From assembly GCA_028286605.1 (NCBI GenBank), contig JAQBRE010000002.1:191720-255719 (forward strand): a stretch of DNA of 64,000 bases, written 5' to 3'. A program made the position numbers and the translations under genes. The notes under the pieces are model-generated. The model ran no database searches, was not told where the DNA came from, and was given only the letters and a program-made list of their open reading frames with translations. Every line of letters starts with the position of its first letter. Positions within the stretch are counted from its first letter, which is position 1. Source of the DNA: Parcubacteria group bacterium (GTDB lineage: Bacteria > Patescibacteriota > Minisyncoccia > Phycocordibacterales > Phycocordibacteraceae). Below are positions 1,460 to 54,382 of this stretch, piece by piece.

Positions 1460-3451
1460 GGCGTTCCACTATTGTATAGTGTGCTAGATATGGCACCTAA
1501 CAGCAACACCACGCCTCCGGAAGGGGGAAAGAAGAAACAGATAAAGAAGAGTTCAGGCACTGCGCCTGAAGACGGAAAGAAGAAGCTGCCAGGATCTGGC
1601 ATGCCCGGCGGATCAGGCTTCCTTATGAATCTCGGAATGACGATCATCATCTTCCTGCTCCTTATTAGCGGGTATTCAGCTATTACTGGCCTCACGAAGC
1701 AGAAGGTACAGGTGCCTCTTTCCCAGGTTGCCGCGGACGTGAAATCTGGAGCCGTGAAGGAAATCGATGTGAACGGAAACGATCTCGATCTCACGTATGC
1801 AGACGGCACGCACAAGACAGCGATGAAGGATCCGGATACGGGTCTTCCTGAAACGCTTGCGACCTATGGCGCTACGCCAGATCAGCTTTCTGCGGTTGCT
1901 ATAAAGATCCAGAATGAATCTGGCTTCAAGTTCTGGTTCCTTACGTTCGCACCGATCATCTTCCCCGTAATACTCCTCGGCATTCTGTTCCTGTTCTTGG
2001 TTCGTCAGGTAAGGGGCGCTGGCATGCAGGCATTCACGTTCGGTCAGTCGAAGGCGCGCATGACTGATCCTGCGGATCAGTCGCAGCGCGTTACGTTCGC
2101 GGACGTCGCCGGCGCGAAGGAAGCGAAGGAAGAATTAATGGAGATAGTGGATTTCTTGAAGAATCCTAAGAAATTCCTGGATATAGGTGCGCGTATTCCT
2201 AAGGGCATCCTGCTTATGGGTGCTCCCGGTACCGGAAAGACGCTGCTCGCGCGCGCAGTCGCCGGCGAAGCCGGCGTGCCATTCTTCTCGATTTCCGGTT
2301 CGGAATTCGTTGAGATGTTCGTGGGTGTCGGCGCGTCGCGTGTGCGTGATCTCTTCCAGATCGCTAAGAAAGCAGCACCTTCGATCATCTTCGTCGATGA
2401 GATCGATGCGGTTGGTCGCGTGCGCGGTTCAGGTGTCGGTGGCGGAAACGATGAACGCGAACAGACGCTCAATCAGATCCTCGTGGAAATGGACGGCTTC
2501 GATCCTACTGAAAAGGTTATCGTCATGGCGGCAACGAACCGTCCGGACGTTCTCGACCCTGCACTGATGCGCCCAGGCCGTTTCGATCGTCGTGTAACGA
2601 TCGATCTTCCTGACCGAAAGGATCGCCTCGAGATTCTTGCCGTGCATTCACGCACGAAGCCATTCGGTCCTGATGTGAATCTTGAAGTGATCGCAGAACG
2701 CACGCCAGGATTCTCGGGTGCAGAACTCTACTCGCTCATGAACGAAGGCGCGATCCTTGCCGCGCGTGAGAATCGCACGGAAGTGACGCAGTACGATCTC
2801 ATCCGCTCAATCGAGAAAGTCATGCTCGGCCCTGAACGCAAGAGCCACCTTATGAATAAGGAAGAGAAGAAGCTCACGGCATATCACGAGGCGGGTCATG
2901 CGCTCGTTACCTCCGTCCTTGAATTCGCTGATCCGGTGCACAAGATATCGATCATCAGTCGCGGACGTGCAGGCGGCTACACGCTCAAGCTTCCGTTCGA
3001 AGATCACAAGATGCAGAGCCGCAAGGAATTCCTTGATGACATCGCGGGTACGCTCGGCGGCTTCGCGGCTGAAGAGCTTATCTACGGCGACGTTACCACC
3101 GGCCCATCAAACGATCTTGCCGTGGTTACGGCGCTCGCACGCGATATGGTCTCACGCTATGGCATGAGCGACGTTATCGGTCCGGTTGCGTTCGCCACGG
3201 ATCATTCGTATCGCAACGAAACGTATTCGCAGGACATCGCTGCGAAGATCGATGCGGAAGTTTCGCGCATGATGGAAGAAGGGAAGAATCGCGCACGTCA
3301 GGTGCTTATGGATCATCGTGGCGCACTTGATGCTATCGCATTGAAGCTCGTTGAAGTCGAGACGCTTGAACGCGAAGAATTCGAGAAGATACTCATTGCT
3401 AACGGAATCACGCCGAAGAGCAAGAAGGAGGAGGACGTGCTGAAGGTGTAA
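1442..3451 (+). CDS. ftsH: ATP-dependent zinc metalloprotease FtsH (alternative start at 1490)
   Basis: Has an N-terminal TM region, Walker A GAPGTGKT, an AAA second region of homology, and the zinc-binding motif HEAGHA. Confidence 0.95.
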
Positions 3452-9368: not shown

Positions 9369-9851
9369 TTACGAAGTTATCGTTACCGTCCCGCCGTCAG
9401 ATGCCTGTATATGGTTGTGGAAGGTGAACGTGCCTATCTTGTTGAACGTAAAGCTGTAGACCGTACCTGGATCAACCGCCGTACATTCGTCAAAGCTGCC
9501 ATTATTGTTCGTGCCATTCGTGCAGTGCTGCTGTTCCGTCGTACCATCATATGTGGTGTGCGTAGGATGATTACCTGCAGCGACCCACATTTTGTGCGAA
9601 GAATTGTTTACGAAGCGTACGGTCGTGCCGAGCTTTACGGTGAAGGTAGCAGGTGAGAAGCCTTTATCGGTATACGTTACGACGGTAGGGGTGGCACCGG
9701 TTGAAGAAGCGTTCGTGCTAACAGCCGGAGTAGTGGGTGTTGCTTCCACAGGCATTGGGGCTGCCGCTGAATGGCTAGCGAACAGGAAGTATCCGCCGAC
9801 TCCAAGAATGAGTACTACTATGACGGCGATAATGATGTTGGTATTGGACAT
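9369..9851 (-). CDS. Membrane-anchored secreted protein, possible cupredoxin-like fold
   Basis: Has an N-terminal TM then a Thr/Pro-rich linker. The C-terminal ~100 aa are beta-rich with His/Cys/His/Met candidates: HKMW, HPTH, two Cys, HNH. Confidence 0.45.
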   Translation of the reverse strand: MSNTNIIIAVIVVLILGVGGYFLFASHSAAAPMPVEATPTTPAVSTNASSTGATPTVVTYTDKGFSPATFTVKLGTTVRFVNNSSHKMWVAAGNHPTHTTYDGTTEQQHCTNGTNNNGSFDECTAVDPGTVYSFTFNKIGTFTFHNHIQASDGGTVTITS

Positions 9852-9959
9852 ACGTTTCAGATTAGCTAATGGATATATTCTACAGGGCGTGTCTTTACGT
9901 TCGTTTCAGTGGTCATATGAACAGTATATCCTCTAGAAGTGAGAGGAAGATTAAGACTG

Positions 9960-37892: not shown

Positions 37893-38660
37893 ATGGATCA
37901 GAAACGCATGCTGCTCTGGGTGTTCTTTCTCGTCGCCATATCTGGTATCGTGGTCGCTGTCTTAGCTGTCTCAGGAAAGGGGGGTACGCCTGCACCAACG
38001 CAGGCCGTACAACTAACTGCGCCGGTTACTGCGGCGGATCATACCATTGGTTCTAGCAGTGCTCCGGTCACTGTCGTCGAGTACGCTGACTTCCAGTGCC
38101 CTGCATGTCAGGAGTACTCGCCGATTATTACGCAGCTGGTCAAAGACGAAGGACCGAAGGTGTATTTCGCCTATAGGTATTTCCCTTTGACGCAGCACAT
38201 GAACGCGCTTCCTTCTGCCAAAGCAGCAGAAGCAGCAGGGCTACAGGGAAAGTTCTGGGAGATGCATGACCTTCTCTTCGCTAACAATGCGGACTGGGAG
38301 AACCTACAGGACCCAACCCTGGTCTTCGTGGGATATGCGAAAACGCTTGGGCTTGATACGACGCAGTTCGCACAGGATATGAAATCGGCCAAGGTGGCTG
38401 GAGTAGTGAATACTGATCTTGCTTTTGCGGATGCCAACCAGCTTACGTATACTCCGAGCATCTTCGTGAATGGCGTGCTCATCAATAATCCGTCTAGCTA
38501 TGCGGACTTCAAGAAGCTCATCGATGACGCAGCAGGGACTCCCGTTCCGCAGACTGCGTCAGCGCCAAGCTCTGCAGGATCCGCGACGATCGCAGCGACC
38601 TCTACTGCCGCCGCACCCGCTGCATCCGCGCCGGCGGCACCGAAACCGTATGCTTGGTAA
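37893..38660 (+). CDS. DsbA-family thiol:disulfide oxidoreductase 2 (ORF opens at 37812; likely start MDQKRM)
   Basis: Has a TM anchor and active site CPAC within EYADFQCPACQEY. Confidence 0.85.
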   Translation: MDQKRMLLWVFFLVAISGIVVAVLAVSGKGGTPAPTQAVQLTAPVTAADHTIGSSSAPVTVVEYADFQCPACQEYSPIITQLVKDEGPKVYFAYRYFPLTQHMNALPSAKAAEAAGLQGKFWEMHDLLFANNADWENLQDPTLVFVGYAKTLGLDTTQFAQDMKSAKVAGVVNTDLAFADANQLTYTPSIFVNGVLINNPSSYADFKKLIDDAAGTPVPQTASAPSSAGSATIAATSTAAAPAASAPAAPKPYAW

Positions 38661-39135
38661 GTTGCTTAACGGAATCCTCCAGAAACTGTCGATAAGCCCG
38701 ATACTGCTTTGGTTGTTCAGCTTGCTCGCGACGCTCGGCTTCATCGATTCGGTCTATCTGACGATCGATCACTATACGCATGGCATCGTGCCGTGTTATG
38801 TAGGAAGTTGCGAAACAGTGCTCACGAGCTCATATGCGAATGGTCTCTTCGGTATCCCGATACCGGTTGCCGTGCTGGGTGTCATATTCTATTTTTCAGT
38901 CCTAGTACTCCTCATGGTGTATTTCGATTCAAAGAATAAAATCGCGCTCTTGCTCGCATTGCTTGCGACATCAATAGGGGTTCTTGCCTCCGGATATTTC
39001 ATCTATCTCCAGGCAGATGTCATTGGTGCATGGTGTCAGTATTGTCTCTTCTCGGCGTTCACGTCGACGACGATGTTTGTAATCGCATTACTGGTAACAA
39101 CTAAAATATGGATGAATTCTTCTTCCACCTCGTAA
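38650..39135 (+). CDS. Vitamin K epoxide reductase (VKOR) homolog (ORF opens at 38470; likely start MLGKLL at 38650)
   Basis: Has TM helices, a Cys pair in the loop (CYVGSC) and the active-site CQYC. Its start overlaps the stop of the upstream DsbA gene. Confidence 0.85.
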   Translation: MLGKLLNGILQKLSISPILLWLFSLLATLGFIDSVYLTIDHYTHGIVPCYVGSCETVLTSSYANGLFGIPIPVAVLGVIFYFSVLVLLMVYFDSKNKIALLLALLATSIGVLASGYFIYLQADVIGAWCQYCLFSAFTSTTMFVIALLVTTKIWMNSSSTS

Positions 39136-39704
39136 ACAATCTTGCCGGGCAATCGGCAAGCGTGGATACAGTAGTGAAGTATCTCTCCACTAATGATCAG
39201 CCGATCATGGAGTGGGTAGGGGTGCTGTGCATTGGGTTTGCAGGAGGCAGACTCCTCAAGCCAAAGGTCAGGATGGGAATCGTGGTCGTGATCTCTGGAC
39301 TCATCACCGGATATATCGCGCTCATGACGAACTTCTTCTTGTGGTTCCATCGTGCACGGCCGTACACGGTGCTGACCGGGAATGATATACATCTCTTGAC
39401 CAAGGTAAGCGCCGCACAAGCATACACTTCGTTCCCTTCGGGGCATGCGATGTTCTTCTTCTCAATTGCAACTGCTGTGTTCCTCACGGACAAGTGCAAA
39501 TGCAAGAAGTTGGGCTGGCTCGCATATGCTGTTGCAACGGTGTTAAGTCTGAGCAAGCTCTACGTGGGAGCGCATTGGCCAAGCGATCTTATTGTCGGCG
39601 GCCTGCTCGGTTCTGCCATCGCATGGATCGTGTGGCGTATTGTGAAGTGCGTGTGCAAGCGGATACAGTCTCGAAAGACCGTTCCTGAAATAGTGAAAGT
39701 GTAG
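39108..39704 (+). CDS. PAP2-family phosphatase (undecaprenyl-diphosphatase-like)
   Basis: Has PAP2 motifs PSGHAMFFFSIATA and HWPSDLIVGG. Confidence 0.8.
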   Translation: MDEFFFHLVNNLAGQSASVDTVVKYLSTNDQPIMEWVGVLCIGFAGGRLLKPKVRMGIVVVISGLITGYIALMTNFFLWFHRARPYTVLTGNDIHLLTKVSAAQAYTSFPSGHAMFFFSIATAVFLTDKCKCKKLGWLAYAVATVLSLSKLYVGAHWPSDLIVGGLLGSAIAWIVWRIVKCVCKRIQSRKTVPEIVKV

Positions 39705-39740
39705 GAGTGCGTGTCAATCCGCGTTCTGCGGAACATGAGT

Positions 39741-39780
39741 AAGACGAACGGCGCGAGAAATCGCGCCGTTCGTCTTGTAT
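39741..39780 (+). terminator. Rho-independent terminator
   Basis: Perfect 16-bp hairpin AGACGAACGGCGCGA-gaaa-TCGCGCCGTTCGTCT followed by TGTATT. Confidence 0.55.
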
Positions 39781-39827
39781 TGCTTGGTACCGTACCCGTG
39801 CTGGCAATACGTTAAATGCACTGATTC

Positions 39828-40379
39828 TTATGCGGCGCTCCCTTTCACATACGCAAGCATCGTCTCTGCATCCGATACTTCGAAGGGGTCCTCGGGGTAA
39901 TCATCAGAGAGGCCGGGCTCAATAAAGAGTTTCTGTATGACGCCGTCTTTTACGAGCATGGAATAGCGCCAGCTACGATTACCGAACCCAAGATTCTCTT
40001 TCTTCACGAGCATGCCCATCTTTTCGGTGAACGCGCCGTTCCCGTCCGGAAGCATTTTTACGTTCTCAAGTCCGAGCTTGTCTGCCCACTGCTTCATGAC
40101 GAACGCGTCGTTCACTGAGAGACAATAGATCTCATCGATCCCGAGCGCTTTGAATTCATCGTACTTCGCTTCGTACCCCGGAGCATGCGTCGTAGAGCAG
40201 GTAGGTGTGAACGCGCCCGGAAGACCGAACACCACTACATTCTTTCCATCAAAAATCTCTGCGGACGGTACATCCTGCCAACGGTACGGGTTCTCACCGC
40301 CGATAGATTCATCGCGCACGCGAGTCTTGAAAACTGTTGCAGGAACACATTCTTCTTCTTTCAGGGGTTGGTGTGACAT
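39828..40379 (-). CDS. Peroxiredoxin, Prx5 subfamily, copy 2 (paralog of 36073..36624)
   Basis: Identical in length (183 aa) and almost identical in sequence to copy 1, with the same PGAFTPTCS motif. Confidence 0.9.
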   Translation of the reverse strand: MSHQPLKEEECVPATVFKTRVRDESIGGENPYRWQDVPSAEIFDGKNVVVFGLPGAFTPTCSTTHAPGYEAKYDEFKALGIDEIYCLSVNDAFVMKQWADKLGLENVKMLPDGNGAFTEKMGMLVKKENLGFGNRSWRYSMLVKDGVIQKLFIEPGLSDDYPEDPFEVSDAETMLAYVKGSAA

Positions 40380-40464: not shown

Positions 40465-40968
40465 TTACGCCGATTCGCGTTTTCGAACGACCGCATATTC
40501 GCGATAGATGAAATACAGCACGACGAGGTCGAACGCTGTTATCGCAACAACAAGTATCGAGTGCAGGGTTACGATCTGATATATCTGATACAGAACGAAC
40601 AGTCCAAGCACGACGAGTGAAGCAGGATAGGCCCACAGCTTATTACGGAGCAGAGCGACGATAAGAAAAAGCTTTATGACGCCTCGACTGAGCAGATAGA
40701 ATGCTAAGAAAATCTCGAGCGACGTAGAGAATGAATGTGCAAGGTGCAGTATCTGGTTCGCGATGAAATCATTCGGTTCTTCCATGAGTTCGCCGCGCGT
40801 AAAGAACATCGCAAGCTGGTTCACGAGCGTAGGCCGTGCGAAGAGCATGAGTGCCCCCGCGATAATCTCTAGTATGGACACCGCTCCCTTAAGAAGGATG
40901 CCGATGCGGAAATATTCATATATATTCTTTTCAGTTTCCATACTTATAGAACTATACCTCTCCACCAT
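40465..40968 (-). CDS. Membrane protein, DUF2127-like, paralog A
   Basis: Has four TM helices. Shares the LLRNKLWAYP...VLYQIYQI motif with 52531..53112. Confidence 0.5.
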   Translation of the reverse strand: MVERYSSISMETEKNIYEYFRIGILLKGAVSILEIIAGALMLFARPTLVNQLAMFFTRGELMEEPNDFIANQILHLAHSFSTSLEIFLAFYLLSRGVIKLFLIVALLRNKLWAYPASLVVLGLFVLYQIYQIVTLHSILVVAITAFDLVVLYFIYREYAVVRKRESA

Positions 40969-41507
40969 ACGCTGCGTTCAATGGCAGGGCTTACATACTG
41001 TGCAACGAACCAGCCGCACGCGATACCAAGCACTGCGCCCGCAATGATGTCAGAAGGGTAATGTATCCCAGCGGCAACACGTGCAAGGACGACGAACGTG
41101 CTAAGAACGTAGAAGAGAACCCCAAGCTTCTTATTCATGAAATACACGCCCGTTGAGAACGCGAAGAAAAAGAGCGCGTGGCCGGAAGGGAAGGAAGGCG
41201 CGTGCTCCTGAATAAGCTGATGCACCTGATAACTAAGGAAGGGTCGAGGTCGCGGAAAGAAATAACGTATCGGGCTTCCGATACCGATACGAGCGATGAG
41301 CGCGCCAAGTAACACCGAGCTGAACGCAAAGAGCTTCTGCTTAATTGAGAGCAGCTGCTGCGAAAGCAGATACAGTGCGAAGCCAGCCACGAGCATGTAT
41401 GGCAGGTACGACGCGATCCCTACGATCACTGCATTGGTAAGCGGATTGTGCCCAGCAAGACTGTTGAGCGCAAAGAAAAGAGTTATGTCCCAGGATCCGA
41501 AATTCAT
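40944..41507 (-). CDS. PAP2-family phosphatase, second copy
   Basis: Has PSGHALFFFAFSTG and HYPSDIIAGA. Confidence 0.75.
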   Translation of the reverse strand: MNFGSWDITLFFALNSLAGHNPLTNAVIVGIASYLPYMLVAGFALYLLSQQLLSIKQKLFAFSSVLLGALIARIGIGSPIRYFFPRPRPFLSYQVHQLIQEHAPSFPSGHALFFFAFSTGVYFMNKKLGVLFYVLSTFVVLARVAAGIHYPSDIIAGAVLGIACGWFVAQYVSPAIERSVWWRGIVL

Positions 41508-42331
41508 TTTTTAATGATACCGGTATCTCGCTTCGTAATACTAAGATAGATCACCAGAACAAGAATAGCGGCAAGGAAGATAAAACTGGTCACTGTTGTA
41601 CCAAGCCCGAGGCCGCCACTGCTTATATCTTGAGAGAGATAATCGCCGATAGACGCTCCGAGCGGTCGCGTAAGAATATATGCGACCCAGAACGCAGCAA
41701 CGGCATTAGCAGATTCAGGCAGGTGTTTGGATTCATTCATGGCTTTTCCTGTGTAGTGGAATGTAGCGACGATGCCTATCAGTGCCGCAAAGATAAGAGC
41801 GGAAATAAGATATCCGAAGTTAAGTCCCTCAGCCATCCAGTCTCCTGCAGAAGTGCCGAGTGCGAATGTGAATAGGATTGCGAGCCAATAAAAGGCTTCA
41901 CGCTTCGTAGTAAAGATGGAGTGGATGGAAAGCGTATGCTCAACGCGATACCAGATCCAGAACACGGCGGCCAAGATGAGACTGAACACCAGTGTCGTAA
42001 CCGGAAGAGCTACGCCAAGATTATCGGTCAGATTATCCGTAATCTGCGTGCCGACGACGCTGATAAGCACCACGGAAAGCCAATAAATCCAGGGAACATA
42101 TTTTCGCGACCGGAACTGCATAAAAAGAACGACCGCAAGAACTGCGGCAGTAATGAGGGTCGTGATAGTAAGGCCAAGATTGACGGTAGATTGTAGGAAA
42201 TCGGAAGCAGTCTCGCCGACGGTCGTGCAAAGCACCTTGATAATCCAGAAATATACGGTAATTTCCGGTACTTTGCTTAGCATTTTCCCTACTTTATCAT
42301 TCTGAATAACAGGAGCTTCTGTTGGCGGCAT
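41504..42331 (-). CDS. Polytopic membrane protein with internal two-fold repeat (COG4705-like)
   Basis: Two halves each carry ...SDFL/GDYLSQ plus a TM bundle. Confidence 0.5.
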   Translation of the reverse strand: MPPTEAPVIQNDKVGKMLSKVPEITVYFWIIKVLCTTVGETASDFLQSTVNLGLTITTLITAAVLAVVLFMQFRSRKYVPWIYWLSVVLISVVGTQITDNLTDNLGVALPVTTLVFSLILAAVFWIWYRVEHTLSIHSIFTTKREAFYWLAILFTFALGTSAGDWMAEGLNFGYLISALIFAALIGIVATFHYTGKAMNESKHLPESANAVAAFWVAYILTRPLGASIGDYLSQDISSGGLGLGTTVTSFIFLAAILVLVIYLSITKRDTGIIKK

Positions 42332-42425
42332 GGATACGTGGCTATGAGTAAATAAATGGGCAGCAGCCCTCCCTCATAGTACGCGTTTCATGCCGTTTTA
42401 TTTCATATGGAATATACTCAGATGA

Positions 42426-43001
42426 ATGGACCCCTCAGACTCGACCGACGAAGCGCTTGCGCAGCGCCTGCAGGCAGGAGACGAAGAGTCACTCTCGCTT
42501 CTTATGCAGCGCTTCGAGCCGAAGCTGATGCGCTATGGCCGGCGCTTCCTTGAAGGGCAGCGCGAGGACGTGTTGCGCCAGGCCGTACAAGACATTTTCA
42601 TTTCTGCGTATCAGAATATCGAATCCTTCGACCCGCGTCAGAGATTCTCGCCCTGGATATATCGCATAGCGCATAACGCATTCGTTGATATCTTGCGGCG
42701 AAGAACGAAGCAGCCGCTCTATGGAATCGATTTCGACCAGCTGATTTCACATCCGATACATGAGGACTCATTCGCTGCAGAGAAAGAACAAGAGGAAATC
42801 CGCGTACTAGTAGAGAAGGGTCTTGGTGAACTCGCTCCTGCCCAGCGCGAAATAATAGTCCTATACTATTTCGAAGAGCTGAGCTACAAGGAAATAGCTG
42901 ATGTGCTTCATGTGCCGGTGAGCACCGTAGGAGTTCGGCTCGCTCGCGCACGCACGACCCTGAAGCGCACGCTGCCGAACTCCTCCGAACTACCCCTATG
43001 A
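42426..43001 (+). CDS. RNA polymerase sigma factor, ECF subfamily
   Basis: Region 2 reads FSPWIYRIAHNAFVDILRRR. The region 4 HTH reads LSYKEIADVLHVPVSTVGVRLARAR. Confidence 0.85.
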   Translation: MDPSDSTDEALAQRLQAGDEESLSLLMQRFEPKLMRYGRRFLEGQREDVLRQAVQDIFISAYQNIESFDPRQRFSPWIYRIAHNAFVDILRRRTKQPLYGIDFDQLISHPIHEDSFAAEKEQEEIRVLVEKGLGELAPAQREIIVLYYFEELSYKEIADVLHVPVSTVGVRLARARTTLKRTLPNSSELPL

Positions 43002-43723
43002 ACGAGAATAACCCAGATTCCATACAGCAGGCCGTACTCGACAAAGTTCGGGCAGGAACAGTACGTCGTCGTCCGCGCTGGCAATTCATCCTGCGCGTAG
43101 CAGGAACTATCGTGGTTATATCGCTGCTACTCGTTATCGCTGCCTTCCTCATAAGTTTCATCCTGTACAGCTTGAATGAAAGCGGCGAGCAATTCCTGCT
43201 CGGTTTCGGACTTCGCGGCATACAAGTATTCCTGACGCTGTTCCCGTGGCTATTCGGCCTCGTTGCGCTTGGCCTTATCGTGCTGCTCGAATGGCTCATT
43301 CGCGGATTCAGATTCGGCTACCGCATACCGCTTCTGAATATATTCCTAGGCGTTGTCGGCGTGAGCATCGTGCTCGGTATAGTAATAAGCGTTACGCCGC
43401 TTCACACGACCCTGCAAGGATTCGCCGCTAAGGACCAGCTTCCGATACTCGGGCAGCCCTATAAGCACGTCCTGGATCATCATGAAGATGAGGGACTTTC
43501 GCGCGGAAAAGTCATAACCGTTGGTGCGAATGAATTCATCATTCAGCACGATGATCACGACCGCGATACGGACGACGGGACCTTTTCCATACACGTAGCC
43601 CCTGATGCGTCTATCGTGCTTCCGCATGTCGGTGATGAAGTCCTCGTATTCGGCGAACCGGAACAAGGGTATATAGACGCTAGTAACGTACTAGTGCTAT
43701 CTCCGCTTTTACCGGTGAAATAA
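42998..43723 (+). CDS. Membrane protein downstream of the ECF sigma (putative anti-sigma factor)
   Basis: Overlaps the sigma-factor stop. Has multiple TM helices and a C-terminal soluble domain. No RsiW zinc motif was recognised. Confidence 0.45.
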   Translation: MNENNPDSIQQAVLDKVRAGTVRRRPRWQFILRVAGTIVVISLLLVIAAFLISFILYSLNESGEQFLLGFGLRGIQVFLTLFPWLFGLVALGLIVLLEWLIRGFRFGYRIPLLNIFLGVVGVSIVLGIVISVTPLHTTLQGFAAKDQLPILGQPYKHVLDHHEDEGLSRGKVITVGANEFIIQHDDHDRDTDDGTFSIHVAPDASIVLPHVGDEVLVFGEPEQGYIDASNVLVLSPLLPVK

Positions 43724-43769
43724 AAAGAGGCGAATGTGCGTACTAAGGCTATACACCCGAGAATAGTCT

Positions 43770-44285
43770 ATGAAAAAATTCCTCGCATCATTCATCTTTA
43801 TCGTCGGATTCATCGGGTACGCCGTGTATGCGAATAGTTCAGCTTCGAGTGCTAACGCACAGACCGTTACGGTATCTAATCCTTCCGCTAGCACGGCGGC
43901 CGATACGGCCGCCTCTGTACCAACGCAGACATCCGCAGGATCGGCACCGCCGACACAACCGGTAACGCCTGTGACGGTAGTGAAGAAGCCGGCCGCTGCG
44001 GCCGGCAAATATGCCGATGGCACCTACACTGGCATCGCCGCGGATGCGTACTACGGAAACATTCAGGTGAAAGCAACAATCTCCGGAGGAAAGCTTACAG
44101 ATGTGGCCTTCCTGCAATATCCCTCGGATCGAAATACATCCGTCTATATAAATCAGCAGGCGATGCCCGTGCTTCGTTCGGAAGCTATCCAAGCGCAGAG
44201 CGCGAATGTAAATGGGGTCTCCGGGGCATCAGATTCGAGCGCGGCATTCAAGCAGTCTCTTGCAAGCGCGCTTGCCAAGGCATAA
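43770..44285 (+). CDS. Secreted FMN-binding domain protein (NqrC/RnfG/PplA-like)
   Basis: Has a signal peptide, then KYADGTYTG...G.IQVKATISGGKLTDV (FMN_bind pattern) and VNGVSGASDSS. The latter fits the [ST]GA[ST] motif flavinylated by ApbE. Confidence 0.75.
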   Translation: MKKFLASFIFIVGFIGYAVYANSSASSANAQTVTVSNPSASTAADTAASVPTQTSAGSAPPTQPVTPVTVVKKPAAAAGKYADGTYTGIAADAYYGNIQVKATISGGKLTDVAFLQYPSDRNTSVYINQQAMPVLRSEAIQAQSANVNGVSGASDSSAAFKQSLASALAKA

Positions 44286-44287
44286 CT

Positions 44288-45034
44288 ATGAGACAGCAGC
44301 GAATTATCATGGGCATGCCCGTGCAACTTGAAATTACAGACGAACACGCACCGCTCGAGCTATACGAACGAGTATTCGATTATTTAAAAAGTATCGATAC
44401 ACGTTTCAGTACGTATATACAAGAGAGTGAAGTATCGAGAATCAATCGCCATGAACTGAAAGAAGCAGAGTACAGTGCTGAGATGCAGGAAGTGCTTTCG
44501 CTTTCAGAAGAAACGAAGAACCAGACCGGAGGATATTTCGATATACGTACTCCTGAAGGACTTCTTGATCCGTCAGGTCTCGTGAAAGGGTGGGCGATCA
44601 ATGCCGCGGCATCAATAGTTTCTGAAGCAGGATTCAAGGATTTCTACATTGAGATCGCCGGTGACATTCAGACGAACGGCATGAATGCTGAAGGGAAGGA
44701 GTGGAGTATCGGCATTCGTAATCCGCTTTCGCGCGACGAAGTGGTGAAAGTCCTGTATCCACGAGGCGCAGGAATCGCGACTTCCGGAACTTCTGAGCGC
44801 GGAAATCATATATACGATCCCCATGCGCCAGGCGTACATCCCGATTCGTATGCGAGCATAACGGTTATCGGACCGAACGTGTACGAAGCTGATCGCTTCG
44901 CCACCGCTGCGTTCGCCATGGGCGAATCGGGCATCCGTTTCATTGAGGCGCTGCCCGGCTTCGAGGCATATGCGATCAATCATAAAGGAATCGCGACCAT
45001 GACGAGCGGCTTCGATTCATACACGAACATATGA
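44288..45034 (+). CDS. apbE: FAD:protein FMN transferase ApbE
   Basis: ApbE family pattern: GGYFDIR...GLVKGWAI...IEIAGDI...ATSGTSERG. Confidence 0.85.
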   Translation: MRQQRIIMGMPVQLEITDEHAPLELYERVFDYLKSIDTRFSTYIQESEVSRINRHELKEAEYSAEMQEVLSLSEETKNQTGGYFDIRTPEGLLDPSGLVKGWAINAAASIVSEAGFKDFYIEIAGDIQTNGMNAEGKEWSIGIRNPLSRDEVVKVLYPRGAGIATSGTSERGNHIYDPHAPGVHPDSYASITVIGPNVYEADRFATAAFAMGESGIRFIEALPGFEAYAINHKGIATMTSGFDSYTNI

Positions 45035-46551
45035 TGCGCTTCATCGACTCATTGCTGAATAAAATAACGATGTATCGTGTCGTGTTGTATGAACTCCTGT
45101 TCCTGCTTGCTGCCGCTGCAGTGCTTGGTGTGTTTCATCTGATTCCGTACAGTCCTTTATATATAGGGTATTCAACGCTCGTTATTCTTGCGGTCTGTTG
45201 GATATCGAACAAAGCCTTCGCCTATTTCTTTGATGCTCCGAGCAATCCGGAATCTGCATATATCACTGCGTTCATTCTTGCGCTCATCATTGCGCCGCCA
45301 CAGGCATTCGGCGACGCACACTTTTTAATACTTGCAGGCTGGGCTTCTGCATGGGCGATGGCTTCTAAATATATCTTCGCAATACAGCGGAAACATCTCT
45401 TCAATCCCGCCGCCTTCGGCGTCGTGATGACTGCGCTTTTTTTGAATCAAGGCGCAACGTGGTGGGTGGGAACGTTATGGATGCTGCCATTCGTTGTGGT
45501 GGGAGGCTTCTTCGTTGCGCGAAAGATACGCCGGTTCGATATGGTGGTCACCTTCGGAATTGCGCTTGTCGCTACGATTCTAATTCTCGGTACCGGAGGC
45601 GGTTCGCTGCATGTCGTACAGCAGGCGCTCTTATATGCGCCCGCGGTATTCTTCGGCACCGTCATGCTGACAGAACCACTCACCGCCCCGACCGACCGGT
45701 ATTGGCGTATTCTCTTCGCGGTGCTCGTCGGCTTCTTGTTCGCTCCTGAAGTGCACATCGGTACGTTCTATCTAACGCCGGAGCTGGTGCTTCTAGCAGG
45801 AAATCTATTCGCATATGTAGTGAGTTCGAAACAGAAGCTCGTGCTTACGCTTAAGGAGCGCATTCCGATAGCGACAGATGCCTATGAGTTCGTTTTCTCA
45901 TCCGATCGTGCGCTTACCTTCAAGCCAGGCCAGTATCTTGAATGGACGCAGGCACATTCGCACAGCGACTCGCGCGGCATACGTCGTTACTTCACTATCG
46001 CTTCTTCGCCGACCGAGAAAGACTTACGTATCGGTGTTAAATTCTACAAGCCTTCAAGCAGTTACAAGAAGGCGTTGTTCGCACTGCGCCCAGGCGATAC
46101 CATCGTCGCCTCGCAGCTTGCGGGTGACTTCACTCTACCTAAAGACAAGAAGAAAAAGCTCGTATTCATTGCGGGCGGCATAGGTGTCACGCCATTCCGC
46201 AGCATGATCCAGTATCTTATAGACAAGAAAGAGCGGCGCGACATCACCCTCATATATTCAAATCGATCGCTGGAGGATACTGCGTATGTCGAGCTGCTTG
46301 GCCAAGCAGAAAGGGAACTGGGTATTGAAACGCTTCCTATATTCAATACGCCGCCTCCGAATGCAGCTCCGGGTGAATTCCCATCGCTCCTAACGCCTGA
46401 AGTGCTCGCCACGGAAGTACCTGATTATCGGGAACGGGAATTTTATCTGTCAGGACCGAACAGCATGGTCAACGCATTCAGCGATATGCTTGCTAGCATG
46501 GGCGTACCGAAGCGACACATCAAGAAGGATTTTTTCCCTGGCTTCGCGTAG
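45031..46551 (+). CDS. Membrane oxidoreductase: NqrB/RnfD-like polytopic domain fused to an FNR-type FAD/NAD(P)-binding domain (tentative)
   Basis: The N-terminal ~280 aa have multiple TMs and HLFNPAAFG. The C-terminal region has RRYFTIAS (RxY[ST] FAD motif), GGIGVTPF (NAD-binding) and a C-terminal aromatic. No 2Fe-2S Cys cluster was seen. Confidence 0.6.
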   Translation: MMRFIDSLLNKITMYRVVLYELLFLLAAAAVLGVFHLIPYSPLYIGYSTLVILAVCWISNKAFAYFFDAPSNPESAYITAFILALIIAPPQAFGDAHFLILAGWASAWAMASKYIFAIQRKHLFNPAAFGVVMTALFLNQGATWWVGTLWMLPFVVVGGFFVARKIRRFDMVVTFGIALVATILILGTGGGSLHVVQQALLYAPAVFFGTVMLTEPLTAPTDRYWRILFAVLVGFLFAPEVHIGTFYLTPELVLLAGNLFAYVVSSKQKLVLTLKERIPIATDAYEFVFSSDRALTFKPGQYLEWTQAHSHSDSRGIRRYFTIASSPTEKDLRIGVKFYKPSSSYKKALFALRPGDTIVASQLAGDFTLPKDKKKKLVFIAGGIGVTPFRSMIQYLIDKKERRDITLIYSNRSLEDTAYVELLGQAERELGIETLPIFNTPPPNAAPGEFPSLLTPEVLATEVPDYREREFYLSGPNSMVNAFSDMLASMGVPKRHIKKDFFPGFA

Positions 46552-46566: not shown

Positions 46567-47700
46567 TTATCGAACGGATTCGTAACCGTTCTTCACGCCG
46601 TTCGGTGAGAGAACGAATTGATAGAGCTGCGTTGTGCGGCCCCGGACCGTCCCCGCACAACTGCCAAGATAGTACCGCCACATGCGGTAGAACCGATCAT
46701 TAAAACGTGCTTCAGTGCCTTTTATTTTTGGCCATGCGGCGACGAAGTTCGCATCCCATGCACAGAGCGTCTTGTCGTAATCCGTACCGAAGTTATGCAG
46801 GTCTTCGATGATAAAATTTCCGTTCACGGCGCTCGTGATTTCCTTCAGAGAGGGAATCCATCCTCCGGGGAAGATGTACCGCTCAATCCATGGCTCGGAA
46901 CCTCCATGGTCATTGCCGCCGATAGTGTGAAGCAGGAACAGGCCTTCAGGCTTTAGGAGCGGGGAAAGAACACGCATGTATTCTGCGTGGTTCTTCGGTC
47001 CTACGTGCTCGAACATACCGATCGAAACGATGTGATCGAAGTGTCCAGCCTTGAAGTGCTTCGGCAAATCACGGTAATCCATGAGACGCAGATCAACCGG
47101 CAATCCTTCACAGAGTTTCGTACCATGTACGAGCTGTTCTTCAGAAAGAGTAATGCCGACGACCGTAGCGCCATATTTTTCTGCTGCGAACTTCGCGAAT
47201 GAGCCGTAGCCGCAACCGACATCAAGAATTATCTGACCTGCGTTGAGTCCGATCTTCCGGCAGATTAGATCGAGTTTTGCTTCCTGTGCCTCGGCGAGCG
47301 TCGTTGCGTTTGCCCAGTATCCGCACGTATAGACCATTCTTGGATCAAGCATGTTCGCATAGAACTGAGCGGGAAGATCGTAGTGCTGTTTCGCAACCCG
47401 AACGGATCGCGTAATGCTCTGTTGATTCCATAGCTTTTGCGCGAATAAGAAAAGAGTGCCCGTAAGTCCGGAACTGCCTCTGTCTGCACCGGTGCGAAGC
47501 AGACGGTTGAAGAATTCGGGGAGGTCATCACAATCCCAATCACCATCCATATAGCTCTCGCCAAGGCCAAGCGAACCCTCTAGGGCTACGCGTGAATAGA
47601 TACGGTCGTTATGAATCTGGATATCGAACGGCCGGTCGCCGTTGATATCGATGCCTGCCTTTTCAAGAGGGGACGTAACCATCCGTTGCAGCATTTTCAT
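46567..47700 (-). CDS. cfa: Cyclopropane-fatty-acyl-phospholipid synthase
   Basis: Has the SAM-binding motif ILDVGCGYGSFAKFAAEKYGA and CFA-synthase-like N- and C-terminal regions. Confidence 0.9.
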   Translation of the reverse strand: MKMLQRMVTSPLEKAGIDINGDRPFDIQIHNDRIYSRVALEGSLGLGESYMDGDWDCDDLPEFFNRLLRTGADRGSSGLTGTLFLFAQKLWNQQSITRSVRVAKQHYDLPAQFYANMLDPRMVYTCGYWANATTLAEAQEAKLDLICRKIGLNAGQIILDVGCGYGSFAKFAAEKYGATVVGITLSEEQLVHGTKLCEGLPVDLRLMDYRDLPKHFKAGHFDHIVSIGMFEHVGPKNHAEYMRVLSPLLKPEGLFLLHTIGGNDHGGSEPWIERYIFPGGWIPSLKEITSAVNGNFIIEDLHNFGTDYDKTLCAWDANFVAAWPKIKGTEARFNDRFYRMWRYYLGSCAGTVRGRTTQLYQFVLSPNGVKNGYESVR

Positions 47701-52017: not shown

Positions 52018-52560
52018 ATGATTTCCCAGAAAGGGTTCACTCTTATCGAGCTTCTCGTCGTTATCGCGATCATCGGCATACTTTCCAGCATCGTGCTTTC
52101 TTCGCTGAATACCGCTCGCACGAAAGGGACTGACGCAGCAGTGAAATCGAATCTCGATCAGGCGCGTACGCAGGCAGAGCTGTTCTATTCGACGAATGGA
52201 GATTCTTATAACAATGGCACGAATGATGTTTGTGCCGTGGGTGCGCTCGCGCTTCGTGATGCATGGATACCTCAAGAAGCTGGAAAATTACTTGCCTTCG
52301 TCGGGTTACCTCCCGGCACGGTGAAGGGAATCAACAGCTTCGTTCTTGCTGCTGCACAATCCGCGGGGCTAGCAACTGTTTCGTTAAATGCTGCAGGCGG
52401 GCCTGGTGTCGCGCTCTGTAATAGTTCAGCGACCGCGTGGGCAGCGGAAGTTCCCCTCAAGACCGCAGGTGCAGGATTCTTCTGTGTCGATAACACCGGT
52501 ATCGCGAGTACTTCGCCGACGACCAAGATCTCAACCGCTGCGGACCGTTCCTGCTTGTAA
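52018..52560 (+). CDS. Type IV major pilin paralog 4 (orphan, outside the main locus)
   Basis: Reads KGFTLIELLVVIAIIGILSSIVLSSLNTARTKGTDAAVKSNLDQARTQAELFY and has four C-terminal Cys. Confidence 0.8.
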   Translation: MISQKGFTLIELLVVIAIIGILSSIVLSSLNTARTKGTDAAVKSNLDQARTQAELFYSTNGDSYNNGTNDVCAVGALALRDAWIPQEAGKLLAFVGLPPGTVKGINSFVLAAAQSAGLATVSLNAAGGPGVALCNSSATAWAAEVPLKTAGAGFFCVDNTGIASTSPTTKISTAADRSCL

Positions 52561-53112
52561 GCGCTTCAGCACGATCTGGTATTCACGCCAGACGAAATAC
52601 ATCACGATGAGATCGAACACAGTTATGCCGATTACGATGATCGAGTCGCCGTTGAGTATCTGGTAAATCTGATACAGCACGAATCCACCCATTACTAGGA
52701 GCAGCGATGGATATGCCCAGAGCTTGTTCAGGAGGAGCGCACTGATAAGCACGGCCTTCACGATACCTCGTATGAAAAGATATCCTGCGACGAAAAGTAG
52801 GGTGTCTGGAGTATAGCTCCCAACCTGGTCGAGCAGCTCTGCTCCGATGGAACCGAGTGGAAGGTTTGTTATGAGCGCAGATGCCAGCTCGTAGATTTTC
52901 GCAGACGGGACAAAGAGAATCGCGATGCCGGAGAGAACTTCGATGATCGAGATAGCGCCCTTAAGAAGGATCGTGATGAGGAATCCTTCGTATATCATTT
53001 TTTCTTCTTGCATAGAGGACAGTATACTGTACGTAATGCTACTTCCGGAACGCGCTCGCAGCCCACGTCCGTTTTTCTGGTCTTTTGCAGCTATTATCGC
53101 GGTCGCAGGCAT
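52531..53112 (-). CDS. Membrane protein, DUF2127-like, paralog B
   Basis: Paralog of 40465..40968. Convergent with the orphan pilin and overlapping it. Confidence 0.5.
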   Translation of the reverse strand: MPATAIIAAKDQKNGRGLRARSGSSITYSILSSMQEEKMIYEGFLITILLKGAISIIEVLSGIAILFVPSAKIYELASALITNLPLGSIGAELLDQVGSYTPDTLLFVAGYLFIRGIVKAVLISALLLNKLWAYPSLLLVMGGFVLYQIYQILNGDSIIVIGITVFDLIVMYFVWREYQIVLKRLQAGTVRSG

Positions 53113-54382
53113 CGCAGGATCTATATATGTATACGTGCAGGTTGATCAGTCGGGCCGCCAGGACATAATCGATCGTGCAGCGACGCTTGCGCAAGTGATT
53201 CCCGCAAACGATGTGTTGGCACTTTCTGGTAGTTCGGCAGACCTCTCTTCGCCCACATATCAAGAATTAAAAACGCTTATGGAGCGCGAACGCGCGGTGA
53301 ATCACGACATACGTTTCATATATCTAGTGGGCAACGAACCGGACGGTACGCTCTTTTTCTACGGTGATTCTGAAGACCCTGCATCGCCGGATTATTCGCC
53401 GCCTGGCCAGGAGTATCCTGAAGCATCGCCTGCGATGCACACGTTCTTTGCGGATGGAGGGAAGAGCCTTGCGGAAGGACCCGATCGCGATCGCTGGGGA
53501 TTGTGGATTTCAGCATACGCGCCCGTTCGCGATGTGAATGGGAACCTTATCGCTATGCTCGGCATGGATGTGCCTGCAGGACCGTATCTTTTGGATCTTA
53601 TTACGTATGCATCACTGCCGCTTCTGCTTGCGCTCCTCCTCCTTGTTCTTTTGCTGGTAGACGGCATATGGCGTGCGCGCAAGGAAGCACTCCTTTCGCA
53701 GAAAGCGGAATTCCTTTCCATCGCCTCACATCAGATTCGTACGCCGCTCATCGGCATACGTTGGGCCATCGAGCAGGTGCTTTCTTCGAATGGCTCTACC
53801 TTGAGTGATCGGGATCGCAACACGCTTTCGCTTACGCATGAAAGCAGCCTCGGCCTTATCGGCCGCGTGAATAATTTGCTAGATGTCACGTCGCTGGAAC
53901 AGCAGGGCGCGCTTCGCGCGCCCAACCAATCTGTCCTAATGCAGCCGCTTCTTAAAGAAATCGCAGACAGTCTCGAGCTTTCCGCCAAGCGCAAGCAGGT
54001 TAGTATCGTTCTCGACGAAAGCATCCCTTCGGATCTTGAAGTGACGAGCGACCGTCAGACGCTCCAGCATATCTTCTTTAATCTTTTAGGTAACGCGGTG
54101 AAGTACACGCGTTCAGAAACGACCATCACCGTCGCGTACGGCTGGACTCCTGATGGCCATCAATTCACCATCACGGATCATGGCCTCGGCATTGCCGCCT
54201 CAGAACAGGAACTTATCTTTGCGGGCTATCATCGCACGCAGCAGGCTATGGAAAGCGGGGAAGCAGGCAGCGGTCTCGGCCTCTATCTTACGAAGAAACT
54301 CGTTCAGCTATTAAAAGGGACGATAGAAGTACACTCGGTCGTGGGCGAAGGCTCGATCTTCACCGTAACGATTCCGGACTAA
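53039..54382 (+). CDS. Sensor histidine kinase with periplasmic sensor domain (ORF opens at 52925; likely start near 53039)
   Basis: Has TM1, a periplasmic domain, TM2, HisKA with H in SIASHQIRTPL, and HATPase_c with G boxes GLGLYL. Confidence 0.8.
   Translation, partial: LLPERARSPRPFFWSFAAIIAVAGIAGSIYVYVQVDQSGRQDIIDRAATLAQVIPANDVLALSGSSADLSSPTYQELKTLMERERAVNHDIRFIYLVGNEPDGTLFFYGDSEDPASPDYSPPGQEYPEASPAMHTFFADGGKSLAEGPDRDRWGLWISAYAPVRDVNGNLIAMLGMDVPAGPYLLDLITYASLPLLLALLLLVLLLVDGIWRARKEALLSQKAEFLSIASHQIRTPLIGIRWAIEQVLSSNGSTLSDRDRNTLSLTHESSLGLIGRVNNLLDVTSLEQQGALRAPNQSVLMQPLLKEIADSLELSAKRKQVSIVLDESIPSDLEVTSDRQTLQHIFFNLLGNAVKYTRSETTITVAYGWTPDGHQFTITDHGLGIAASEQELIFAGYHRTQQAMESGEAGSGLGLYLTKKLVQLLKGTIEVHSVVGEGSIFTVTIPD

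Follow-up and report, generated by a model that had tools for sequence, protein, structure and literature searches.

The closest described relatives of the locus analysed here are the NQR/RNF-like systems. In the passages of Méheust et al. (eLife 2021, PMC8238504) that deal with them, these systems are flavinylation gene clusters with a PF03116::PF00175 fusion, for which electron transfer from NAD(P)H to extracytosolic flavin mononucleotide (FMN) was proposed. A cluster is counted there when ApbE or FMN_bind is encoded within five genes of the fusion and at least one of the two has a signal peptide; VIT1 was noted in six clusters. In the part of their study devoted to this family, Huang et al. 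(mSystems 2024, PMC11334425) modelled the two-subunit complex of Ktedonobacter racemifer, whose membrane domain is without the flavinylated Thr. In their description, the FMN_bind subunit is docked to the membrane subunit and its flavin lies beside the membrane flavin pocket; the outer-subunit FMN, they suggested, samples the non-covalent flavin site of the membrane subunit. Here, we describe a locus of this kind in 64,000 nucleotides (nt) of DNA from a Parcubacteria group bacterium (assembly GCA_028286605.1, contig JAQBRE010000002.1, positions 191,720 to 255,719 of the forward strand). This whole 64-kb stretch is called the window, and all coordinates refer to it. The locus (42426-46551) probably encodes a flavin-based NQR/RNF-like module of two subunits for electron transfer across the membrane, along with the flavin transferase that serves it and an extracytoplasmic function (ECF) sigma/sensor pair dedicated to it. 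A first-pass annotation, made from the sequence alone, had described the NqrB-like::NqrF-like fusion as an unrecognised arrangement; it is the one already published under the name of the NQR/RNF-like system in the two studies cited.

The block consists of five co-directional and tightly packed genes, and all five open reading frames (ORFs) of the first-pass annotation were recovered on the + strand at the positions it had given. From first to last, their products are an ECF sigma factor, the membrane protein that takes the anti-sigma position, an FMN_bind subunit, an ApbE flavin transferase, and a 506-aa fusion protein. The first two genes overlap by 4 nt, as do the last two; 46 nt separate the second gene from the third, and 2 nt the third from the fourth. 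The last three genes are hereafter called the trio. Homologues of the fusion number more than 7,400, mostly of full length (about 505-510 aa) and highly conserved; together with a gene order kept across phyla, this indicates that the features of the locus lie far beyond chance. The window's fusion is 100% identical to a hypothetical protein from a metagenome-assembled 'Parcubacteria group bacterium' genome at NCBI, in agreement with the candidate phyla radiation origin assumed at first reading.

The 506-aa protein (45031-46551, +) joins an RnfD/NqrB-like polytopic membrane domain (residues 1-268; 45031-45834, +) to an FNR-type domain predicted to bind flavin adenine dinucleotide (FAD) and NAD(P)H (residues 269-506; 45835-46551, +). 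The FNR half follows the last membrane helix immediately, from about residue 269 on; no ferredoxin-type domain intervenes. It matches NAD_binding_1 (PF00175) in Pfam with E = 4e-10, the FAD_binding_6 match being weak. The three motifs by which the protein had originally been recognised as a fusion are in place, namely HLFNPAAFG at residues 122-130, RRYFTIAS at 318-325, and GGIGVTPF at 382-389. Precomputed PF03116 matches were found on many homologues, and when 14 N-terminal halves were scanned singly, PF03116 was detected in 13 of them (best E = 5.5e-11), the exception being the window's own. A profile built from N-terminal halves gave a sole match among PDB sequences, to Azotobacter RnfD (8ahx_D, E = 1.1e-4). 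Through homologues, profile, and predicted fold, the homology of the membrane half to RnfD/NqrB is thus supported, and the two-half architecture first proposed is borne out; an assignment to an unrelated transporter family, which had been named as the outcome that would overturn it, was not obtained.

The membrane domain differs from its relatives by one deletion. In an hhalign alignment with E. coli RsxD, residue 142 of the fusion joins residue 218 of RsxD. Since only 13 residues separate the FNPA motif from this joint in the fusion, compared with about 93 in RsxD, the flavinylated loop (GISQAT, with Thr187 of RsxD) is absent from the fusion. The lost segment is the extracytoplasmic loop that bears the flavinylated Thr in RsxD. 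A GAT at residues 141-143 was considered as a vestigial flavinylation site and rejected: several homologues have Val or Asn at position 143, and in the hhalign alignment the GAT falls after the deleted loop. The structure of the fusion was predicted as a monomer; its helices and the positive-inside rule, applied by inspection, place the N terminus and the FNR domain presumably in the cytoplasm.

The 171-aa FMN_bind subunit of NqrC/RnfG type (43770-44285, +) carries PF04205 at residues 94-168 (30.5 bits, cut-off 22), and the 248-aa product of the next gene (44288-45034, +) matches PF02424 with 134 bits, so that both identities given at first reading, FMN_bind and ApbE (FAD:protein FMN transferase), hold. 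The FMN_bind protein is built of an N-terminal signal/anchor, an S/T/A/P-rich linker, and the FMN_bind domain. Its N terminus reads MKK followed by a 17-residue hydrophobic stretch; by inspection, every FMN_bind orthologue has a basic N terminus, a hydrophobic stretch, and an S/T/P-rich linker, and a lipobox is present in the inspected actinobacterial orthologue (L079). Because of this signal/anchor and linker, the FMN_bind domain is expected to be exported or anchored facing outward, like NqrC/RnfG. The flavinylation motif N-G-V-S-G-A-S occupies residues 148-154 (44211-44231, +), with the SGAS pointed out earlier at residues 151-154 and FMN attachment predicted at Ser154. A lack of a conserved acceptor Ser/Thr among homologues had been named as an outcome that would refute the reading; it was not obtained, as 51 of the 52 FMN_bind orthologues from related loci carry D-x-[IV]-[ST]-G-A-[TS] (SGAT in 40, SGAS in 7, TGAT in 3, and TGAS in 1).

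The ApbE is a compact one, about 45 internal residues of the solved ApbEs being missing. Aligned to the V. cholerae and E. coli enzymes, it keeps the KGW, ATSG, NHIYDP, and EADRFATA motifs, which fall on their FAD-binding and catalytic residues (the catalytic residues as given in the ApbE passages of PMC12052999). The alignment to the solved ApbEs begins in their mature part, and nothing precedes the first strand of the fold in the window protein.

The features that define an NQR/RNF-like system can be followed one by one in the locus. FMN_bind and ApbE are encoded immediately upstream of the fusion, with a signal/anchor on FMN_bind, by inspection, and none on ApbE; the NqrF-like PF00175 domain lies at the C terminus of the same protein as the NqrB/RnfD-like membrane domain; and this membrane domain is without the conserved NqrB/RnfD flavinylated Thr, which is lost in both the published systems and ours. 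The published systems also occur in the candidate phyla radiation (CPR), and their VIT1 neighbour has its counterpart in an orthologous cassette (L081). Differences were noted as well: the window's own fusion scores under the PF03116 threshold that enters the published definition, and the window's clade adds the ECF sigma/sensor pair and a promoter motif of its own. At the level of sequence, the locus agrees with the NQR/RNF-like system in every defining feature and lacks those of NQR/RNF proper and of the Listeria type.

Of the two likenesses put forward in the first-pass annotation, a compressed NQR/RNF and a Listeria-type unit, the former therefore stands in its NQR/RNF-like form and the latter falls, with no Ndh2/quinone step and no lipoprotein ApbE. 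The flavin-based extracellular electron transfer system of Listeria monocytogenes (Ndh2, EetA/B, DmkA/B, PplA, FmnA/FmnB) likewise comprises an ApbE-family transferase and an exported FMN_bind protein, and likewise takes electrons from cytoplasmic NADH to the outside of a cell without an outer membrane. Its membrane step, in contrast, is formed by a type II NADH dehydrogenase and a demethylmenaquinone pool, where the window has a single RnfD::FNR fusion. FmnB is described, in the passages of PMC9973259 that concern it, as an extracytosolic enzyme supplied with flavin by an energy-coupling factor transporter; this lipoprotein contrasts with the window ApbE, which has no export signal. No gene for Ndh2, quinone, a lipoprotein ApbE (FmnB), or the flavin exporter FmnA was found in the block or its flanks.

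We next consider how widely the arrangement is distributed. With one genome per species, at least 507 loci with a relative of the fusion were found, in Patescibacteria, Chloroflexota (Dictyobacter, Ktedonospora), Alphaproteobacteria (Mesorhizobium, Kaistia), Spirochaetota, Actinobacteria (Agreia, Schumannella), and others. The membrane half alone matched 1,382 clusters at 50% identity, 337 of them with E <= 1e-30. Neighbourhoods were counted in 80 loci (L001-L080) out of the at least 507. The order FMN_bind-ApbE-fusion was found in 51 of the 80 by single-sequence phmmer, and BLAST clustering placed an FMN_bind gene in 70 and an ApbE gene in 68, which brings the trio to about 68-70 of the 80; the conserved core across these loci is the three genes. 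The co-occurrence of the trio in other CPR genomes, which the first reading had proposed to check, was therefore found, and it extends to several other phyla. The published Pfam-based census, with 127 clusters against at least 507 species-level loci here, probably undercounts the family, because fusions of the window's type score under the PF03116 threshold that defines the system. The fusions of Mesorhizobium, Kaistia, and Phyllobacterium (L010, L012, L016, L018, L020-L022, L034) share 50-53% identity over their full length with the Parcubacteria protein and are about as close to it as many CPR orthologues, which suggests that the module of three genes has spread horizontally even between very distant phyla.

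The regulatory genes are less widely shared than the trio. The five-gene order (sigma factor, a 238-240-aa protein, FMN_bind, ApbE, fusion) is kept in further cassettes with protein identities to that of the window of 79% (L081-L083) and 69% (L084-L085), although their flanking genes differ. The sigma/anti-sigma pair is part of the cassette only in this close Paceibacteria clade. Elsewhere, in at least 15 of the 80 loci, from Mesorhizobium, spirochaetes, and other CPR bacteria, a response-regulator/histidine-kinase pair lies directly beside the trio (L008, L010, L016, L018, L021, L033-L035, L037, L050, L054, L067, L070, L076, L077) and occupies the place held by the ECF sigma pair in the window's clade. 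Because a two-component pair is found there and an ECF pair here, the trio tends to travel with a dedicated envelope-sensing regulator whose kind varies by lineage. In about ten CPR loci, a MacB-like ABC set, consisting of an adaptor-like protein of ~430 aa, an ABC ATPase, and an FtsX-type permease, was observed within 6 kb of the trio, sometimes with a histidine kinase (L001, L008, L009, L015, L026, L028, L039, L065, L084).

The first gene of the block encodes an ECF (group IV) sigma-70 family sigma factor of 191 aa (42426-43001, +), as identified with Pfam and NCBIfam. It has regions 2 and 4 only, matches Sigma70_r2, Sigma70_r4_2, and Sigma70_ECF in Pfam and TIGR02937 in NCBIfam (102 bits, cut-off 42.9), and finds its best equivalog-type NCBIfam matches in SigW, under the cut-off of that family, a first point of likeness to the sigmaW-type regulons of Bacillus subtilis. 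Upstream of FMN_bind, three cassettes share the conserved intergenic block TGAAAT-N17-CGTACTA, whose copy in the window lies at 43716-43745 (+) and ends 24 nt upstream of the FMN_bind ATG. L084 and L085 also have it in front of FMN_bind, and L081-L083 have it as a TGTAAT variant. A second copy, TGAAAT-N16-CGTACTA (42377-42405, -), lies 45 nt upstream of the divergent DUF347 gene. The pattern TGAAAY-N15-18-CGTAYTA has exactly 2 matches in the window, where shuffles predict 0.04, and these two copies flank the sigma/sensor genes and face the two operons. With its form TGAAAY-N16-17-CGTA, the motif resembles the Bacillus sigmaW consensus. A scan of the block for generic sigma-70 promoters and terminators gave nothing useful on the + strand. 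The predicted promoter in front of FMN_bind, of ECF type (-35 GAAC-like, -10 CGT-like), supports the placing of the trio under the ECF pair.

The second motif copy points to a second target. The divergent DUF347-PAP2-DUF2127 operon (40465-42331, -; Pfam), whose genes overlap or abut and whose first gene, DUF347 (41504-42331, -), forms one border of the five-gene block, is probably transcribed with the same sigma factor, judging from the motif before it, and would then be part of the system. The other border is a convergent cyclopropane-fatty-acid synthase gene (46567-47700, -). Among known families, undecaprenyl-diphosphatases come closest to the PAP2 protein, which scores under their cut-offs. 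In Bacillus, bcrC, which encodes a PAP2 protein of the undecaprenyl-diphosphatase-like type, is a target of ECF sigma factors, and a gene of this type among the likely targets in the window is a further likeness to the sigmaW regulons of B. subtilis. UppP-DUF347 operons are reported to be lead-induced in Frankia (PMC4531530). In L081-L083, a gene for a VIT1-family iron/manganese transporter (2725-3429, +) ends 7 nt before the sigma gene. A DUF2127 gene was also observed near the cassette in L081.

The partner of the sigma factor is a putative anti-sigma or sensor membrane protein of 241 aa (42998-43723, +), so named from its position, whose gene overlaps the sigma gene at ATGA and is thereby translationally coupled to it. 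It belongs to no Pfam or NCBIfam family, Sigma_reg_N being sub-threshold with E = 0.12. The AlphaFold2 model (mean predicted local distance difference test score, pLDDT, 80.4) starts with a short helix, continues with a bundle of membrane helices, and ends in a five-stranded OB-fold; four membrane helices are predicted, with the short N-terminal helix in the cytoplasm. The outward-facing part contains a near-invariant His/Asp loop, HxDxxDxDxDDG, which is reminiscent of DxDxDG calcium/metal-binding loops. About 147 proteins of about 235-255 aa make up the family, all unannotated and apparently all from Patescibacteria, and many of them share contigs with fusion homologues. The protein is not an RsiW-type zinc-binding anti-sigma factor like that of B. 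subtilis; with its four helices, OB-fold, and acidic His/Asp loop, it may be a novel sensor that governs the regulon. As for the claim that the trio stands under an ECF sigma/anti-sigma pair, the sigma factor and the promoter motif before FMN_bind uphold it, and the anti-sigma half of it was matched by no family. The acidic loop, the VIT1 neighbour, the lead-induced UppP-DUF347 operons, and the PAP2 type allow the speculation that the signal is a divalent metal or envelope stress.

It could be argued that the sigma/sensor pair and the trio are mere neighbours, the trio being constitutive or otherwise controlled. The motif directly upstream of FMN_bind in the window and in L081-L085, the maintenance of the five-gene order while the flanks change, and the repeated presence of the small sensor family on the same contigs as fusion homologues make this unlikely, even though the sigma gene is near the trio in only 4 of the 80 species-level loci and, in L042, the motif lies directly upstream of the orthologous sigma gene, which is followed by an ABC-transporter operon, while no copy was found before FMN_bind.

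With the trio placed under the ECF pair, the following working scheme may be drawn. NAD(P)H would reduce the FAD of the cytoplasmic FNR-type domain of the fusion, and the electrons would cross the membrane through the RnfD/NqrB-like domain, which presumably holds a non-covalent flavin. They would arrive at the FMN attached covalently by ApbE to Ser154 of the outward-facing, membrane-anchored FMN_bind subunit and then go on to an extracytoplasmic acceptor. The FMN_bind-ApbE-fusion genes would be transcribed from the sigmaW-like ECF promoter. Because the DUF347-PAP2-DUF2127 operon would be transcribed from the same type of promoter, the two would be co-induced, switched on together once the membrane sensor releases the sigma factor, in a response most like that to envelope or divalent-metal stress. 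The domain assignments and the predicted flow from NAD(P)H through the FNR and RnfD/NqrB-like domains to the flavinylated FMN_bind subunit agree with all tests run and are, to that extent, supported.

Several observations weigh against this scheme or parts of it. The membrane half of the window fusion itself gave no PF03116 match in Pfam or NCBIfam, even at E <= 10. The flavinylation motif of the window is off the consensus, with Asn for Asp and with Ser for Thr as the acceptor; according to the motif rule D-x-x-[ST]-G-A-[ST], as set out in the passages of PMC12052999 on motif recognition, the Asp is dispensable and Ser is accepted, and the mutants reported there have a lower flavinylation efficiency with a Ser acceptor. 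No anti-sigma domain or fold was matched in the partner protein, and only its position and translational coupling suggest that it acts as an anti-sigma factor. No ECF motif in the window faces the sigma gene itself, nor was a conserved motif found upstream of it. A full-text literature search returned no experimental characterisation of any member of the NQR/RNF-like family. Finally, in none of about 68 loci, which represent at least five phyla, does the cluster ApbE carry a signal peptide, a lipobox, or a membrane helix, and its 120 closest homologues, all of 238-280 aa, are likewise leaderless. Because the ApbE is leaderless and its substrate exported, the flavinylation step is at odds with the accepted periplasmic scheme, and this conserved conflict with the accepted site of flavinylation therefore deserves experiment.

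The lack of a leader on the window ApbE follows from its gene start: the ORF opens 2 nt past the upstream stop, at the first strand of the fold, and therefore has no signal peptide. A hidden signal, supplied by an upstream start or by read-through from FMN_bind, was considered and rejected, since the frames differ, a TAA stands 2 nt before the ATG, and the ORF is already maximal. The NCBI record of the identical ApbE uses an internal Met start (region 44288-44310), giving 241 aa compared with the 248 aa of the maximal ORF, and neither start leaves room for a leader. A leaderless cluster ApbE is not mentioned in the NQR/RNF-like passages of PMC8238504 and PMC11334425.

The absence of an ApbE export signal in all loci and homologues examined would be explained if the whole flavin system lay at the cytoplasmic face, with the FMN_bind subunit inside, tethered by its N-terminal helix, and the module acting as a membrane-bound NAD(P)H oxidoreductase whose acceptor lies in the cytoplasm or the membrane; cytoplasmic ApbEs of Klebsiella do flavinylate cytoplasmic reductases, as described in the passages of PMC12052999 that treat them. 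We nevertheless find this quite unlikely. The basic pair, hydrophobic anchor, and S/T/P-rich linker of the FMN_bind orthologues, and the lipobox of L079, are marks of export, the homologous NqrC/RnfG subunits are periplasmic, and the multimer model in the structural part of PMC11334425 puts the FMN_bind subunit on the outer face.

If the FMN_bind subunit faces outward, as we prefer, the simple scheme in which a periplasmic ApbE loads a secreted protein is not what the proteins themselves display, because the ApbE is without an export signal. The combination of a leaderless ApbE with an exported FMN_bind protein in all phyla examined points to a flavinylation route that may depart from the accepted periplasmic scheme. 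FMN could be attached to the 7-residue motif while the protein is still in the cytoplasm, and the FMN-bearing chain then translocated by Sec; alternatively, the ApbE could get to the outer face via an unrecognised route. That one of these two routes operates together with a metal-responsive ECF regulon in the Paceibacteria clade is a tentative proposal, doubtful as a whole and yet worth stating.

The likeness to the ion-translocating complexes bears on whether the module could, on a small scale, pump ions or couple reversibly as NQR/RNF do, either by moving Na+/H+ as NAD(P)H is oxidised or by using the membrane potential to bring electrons from an external donor inward to NAD(P)+. The membrane domain of the fusion is homologous to NqrB/RnfD of Na+-NQR (NqrA-F) and RNF (RnfABCDGE), the FMN_bind protein to NqrC/RnfG, and the FNR-like domain to the FAD/NADH part of NqrF; all of these systems depend on ApbE. 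Many polar or charged intramembrane residues are invariant in the fusion family (N60, N72, K113, K121, H122, N125, K165, E215), a point in favour of this reading. In contrast to the six subunits of those complexes there are two here, without the [2Fe-2S] ferredoxin domain, NqrA, or RnfB/C, and the loop on which the B/D subunit carries its covalent FMN has been lost. The NqrD/E (RnfA/E) pair, which carries the intramembrane Fe-S centre, is absent from the cluster, whose conserved core is three genes; none was found among the genes of 38.4-50.1 kb, the rest of the window not having been scanned for RnfA/E. In the passages of PMC8238504 on coupling, the semicircular path behind NQR coupling is impossible with a single membrane subunit. 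With the return path behind ion pumping lacking, the flow is predicted to be one-way and outward, and a pump or reversible site is very unlikely. As for a NOX/ferric-reductase-type enzyme, with a transmembrane bis-haem domain and an FNR-like dehydrogenase, the shared layout of a membrane domain followed by a FAD/NAD domain and a weak NAD_binding_6 match speak for it; it has hardly any chance, because the homologues carry PF03116 and not PF01794 and have no conserved pair of His-His haem ligands, H122 being the only invariant His.

Patescibacteria, the bacteria of the CPR, have tiny genomes and are generally without respiratory chains. A three-gene module that could pass NAD(P)H electrons outside may be among their few membrane redox devices. 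Tentatively, the regulatory context points to an extracytoplasmic reductase that responds to metal and might act on iron, for instance, in cells lacking a respiratory chain. The module is also a compact target for studying how NqrB/RnfD-type proteins move electrons between flavins. The type of system is already in the literature, and the locus by itself opens no new question; its value is that of a well-delimited, promoter-annotated example and of evidence for the census undercount. The two concrete puzzles it raises are why the ApbE is leaderless and to which signal the partner protein of the ECF sigma factor responds. What is added to the literature is modest: a defined ECF promoter motif with a probable two-operon regulon in this clade, the probable undercount, and the conserved lack of an ApbE export signal.

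The neighbourhood of the block is rich in envelope and thiol-redox functions. Upstream, at 38470-40379, a VKOR-family protein, a second PAP2 phosphatase, and a Redoxin/peroxiredoxin-type protein are encoded. The window contains no second ApbE, FMN_bind, sigma, or VIT1 gene save for one very weak FMN_bind-like match (14.8 bits, E = 7e-4) in an ORF at 9372-9905 (-), which may stem solely from low-complexity sequence. A second DUF2127 paralogue lies at 52534-53145 (-).

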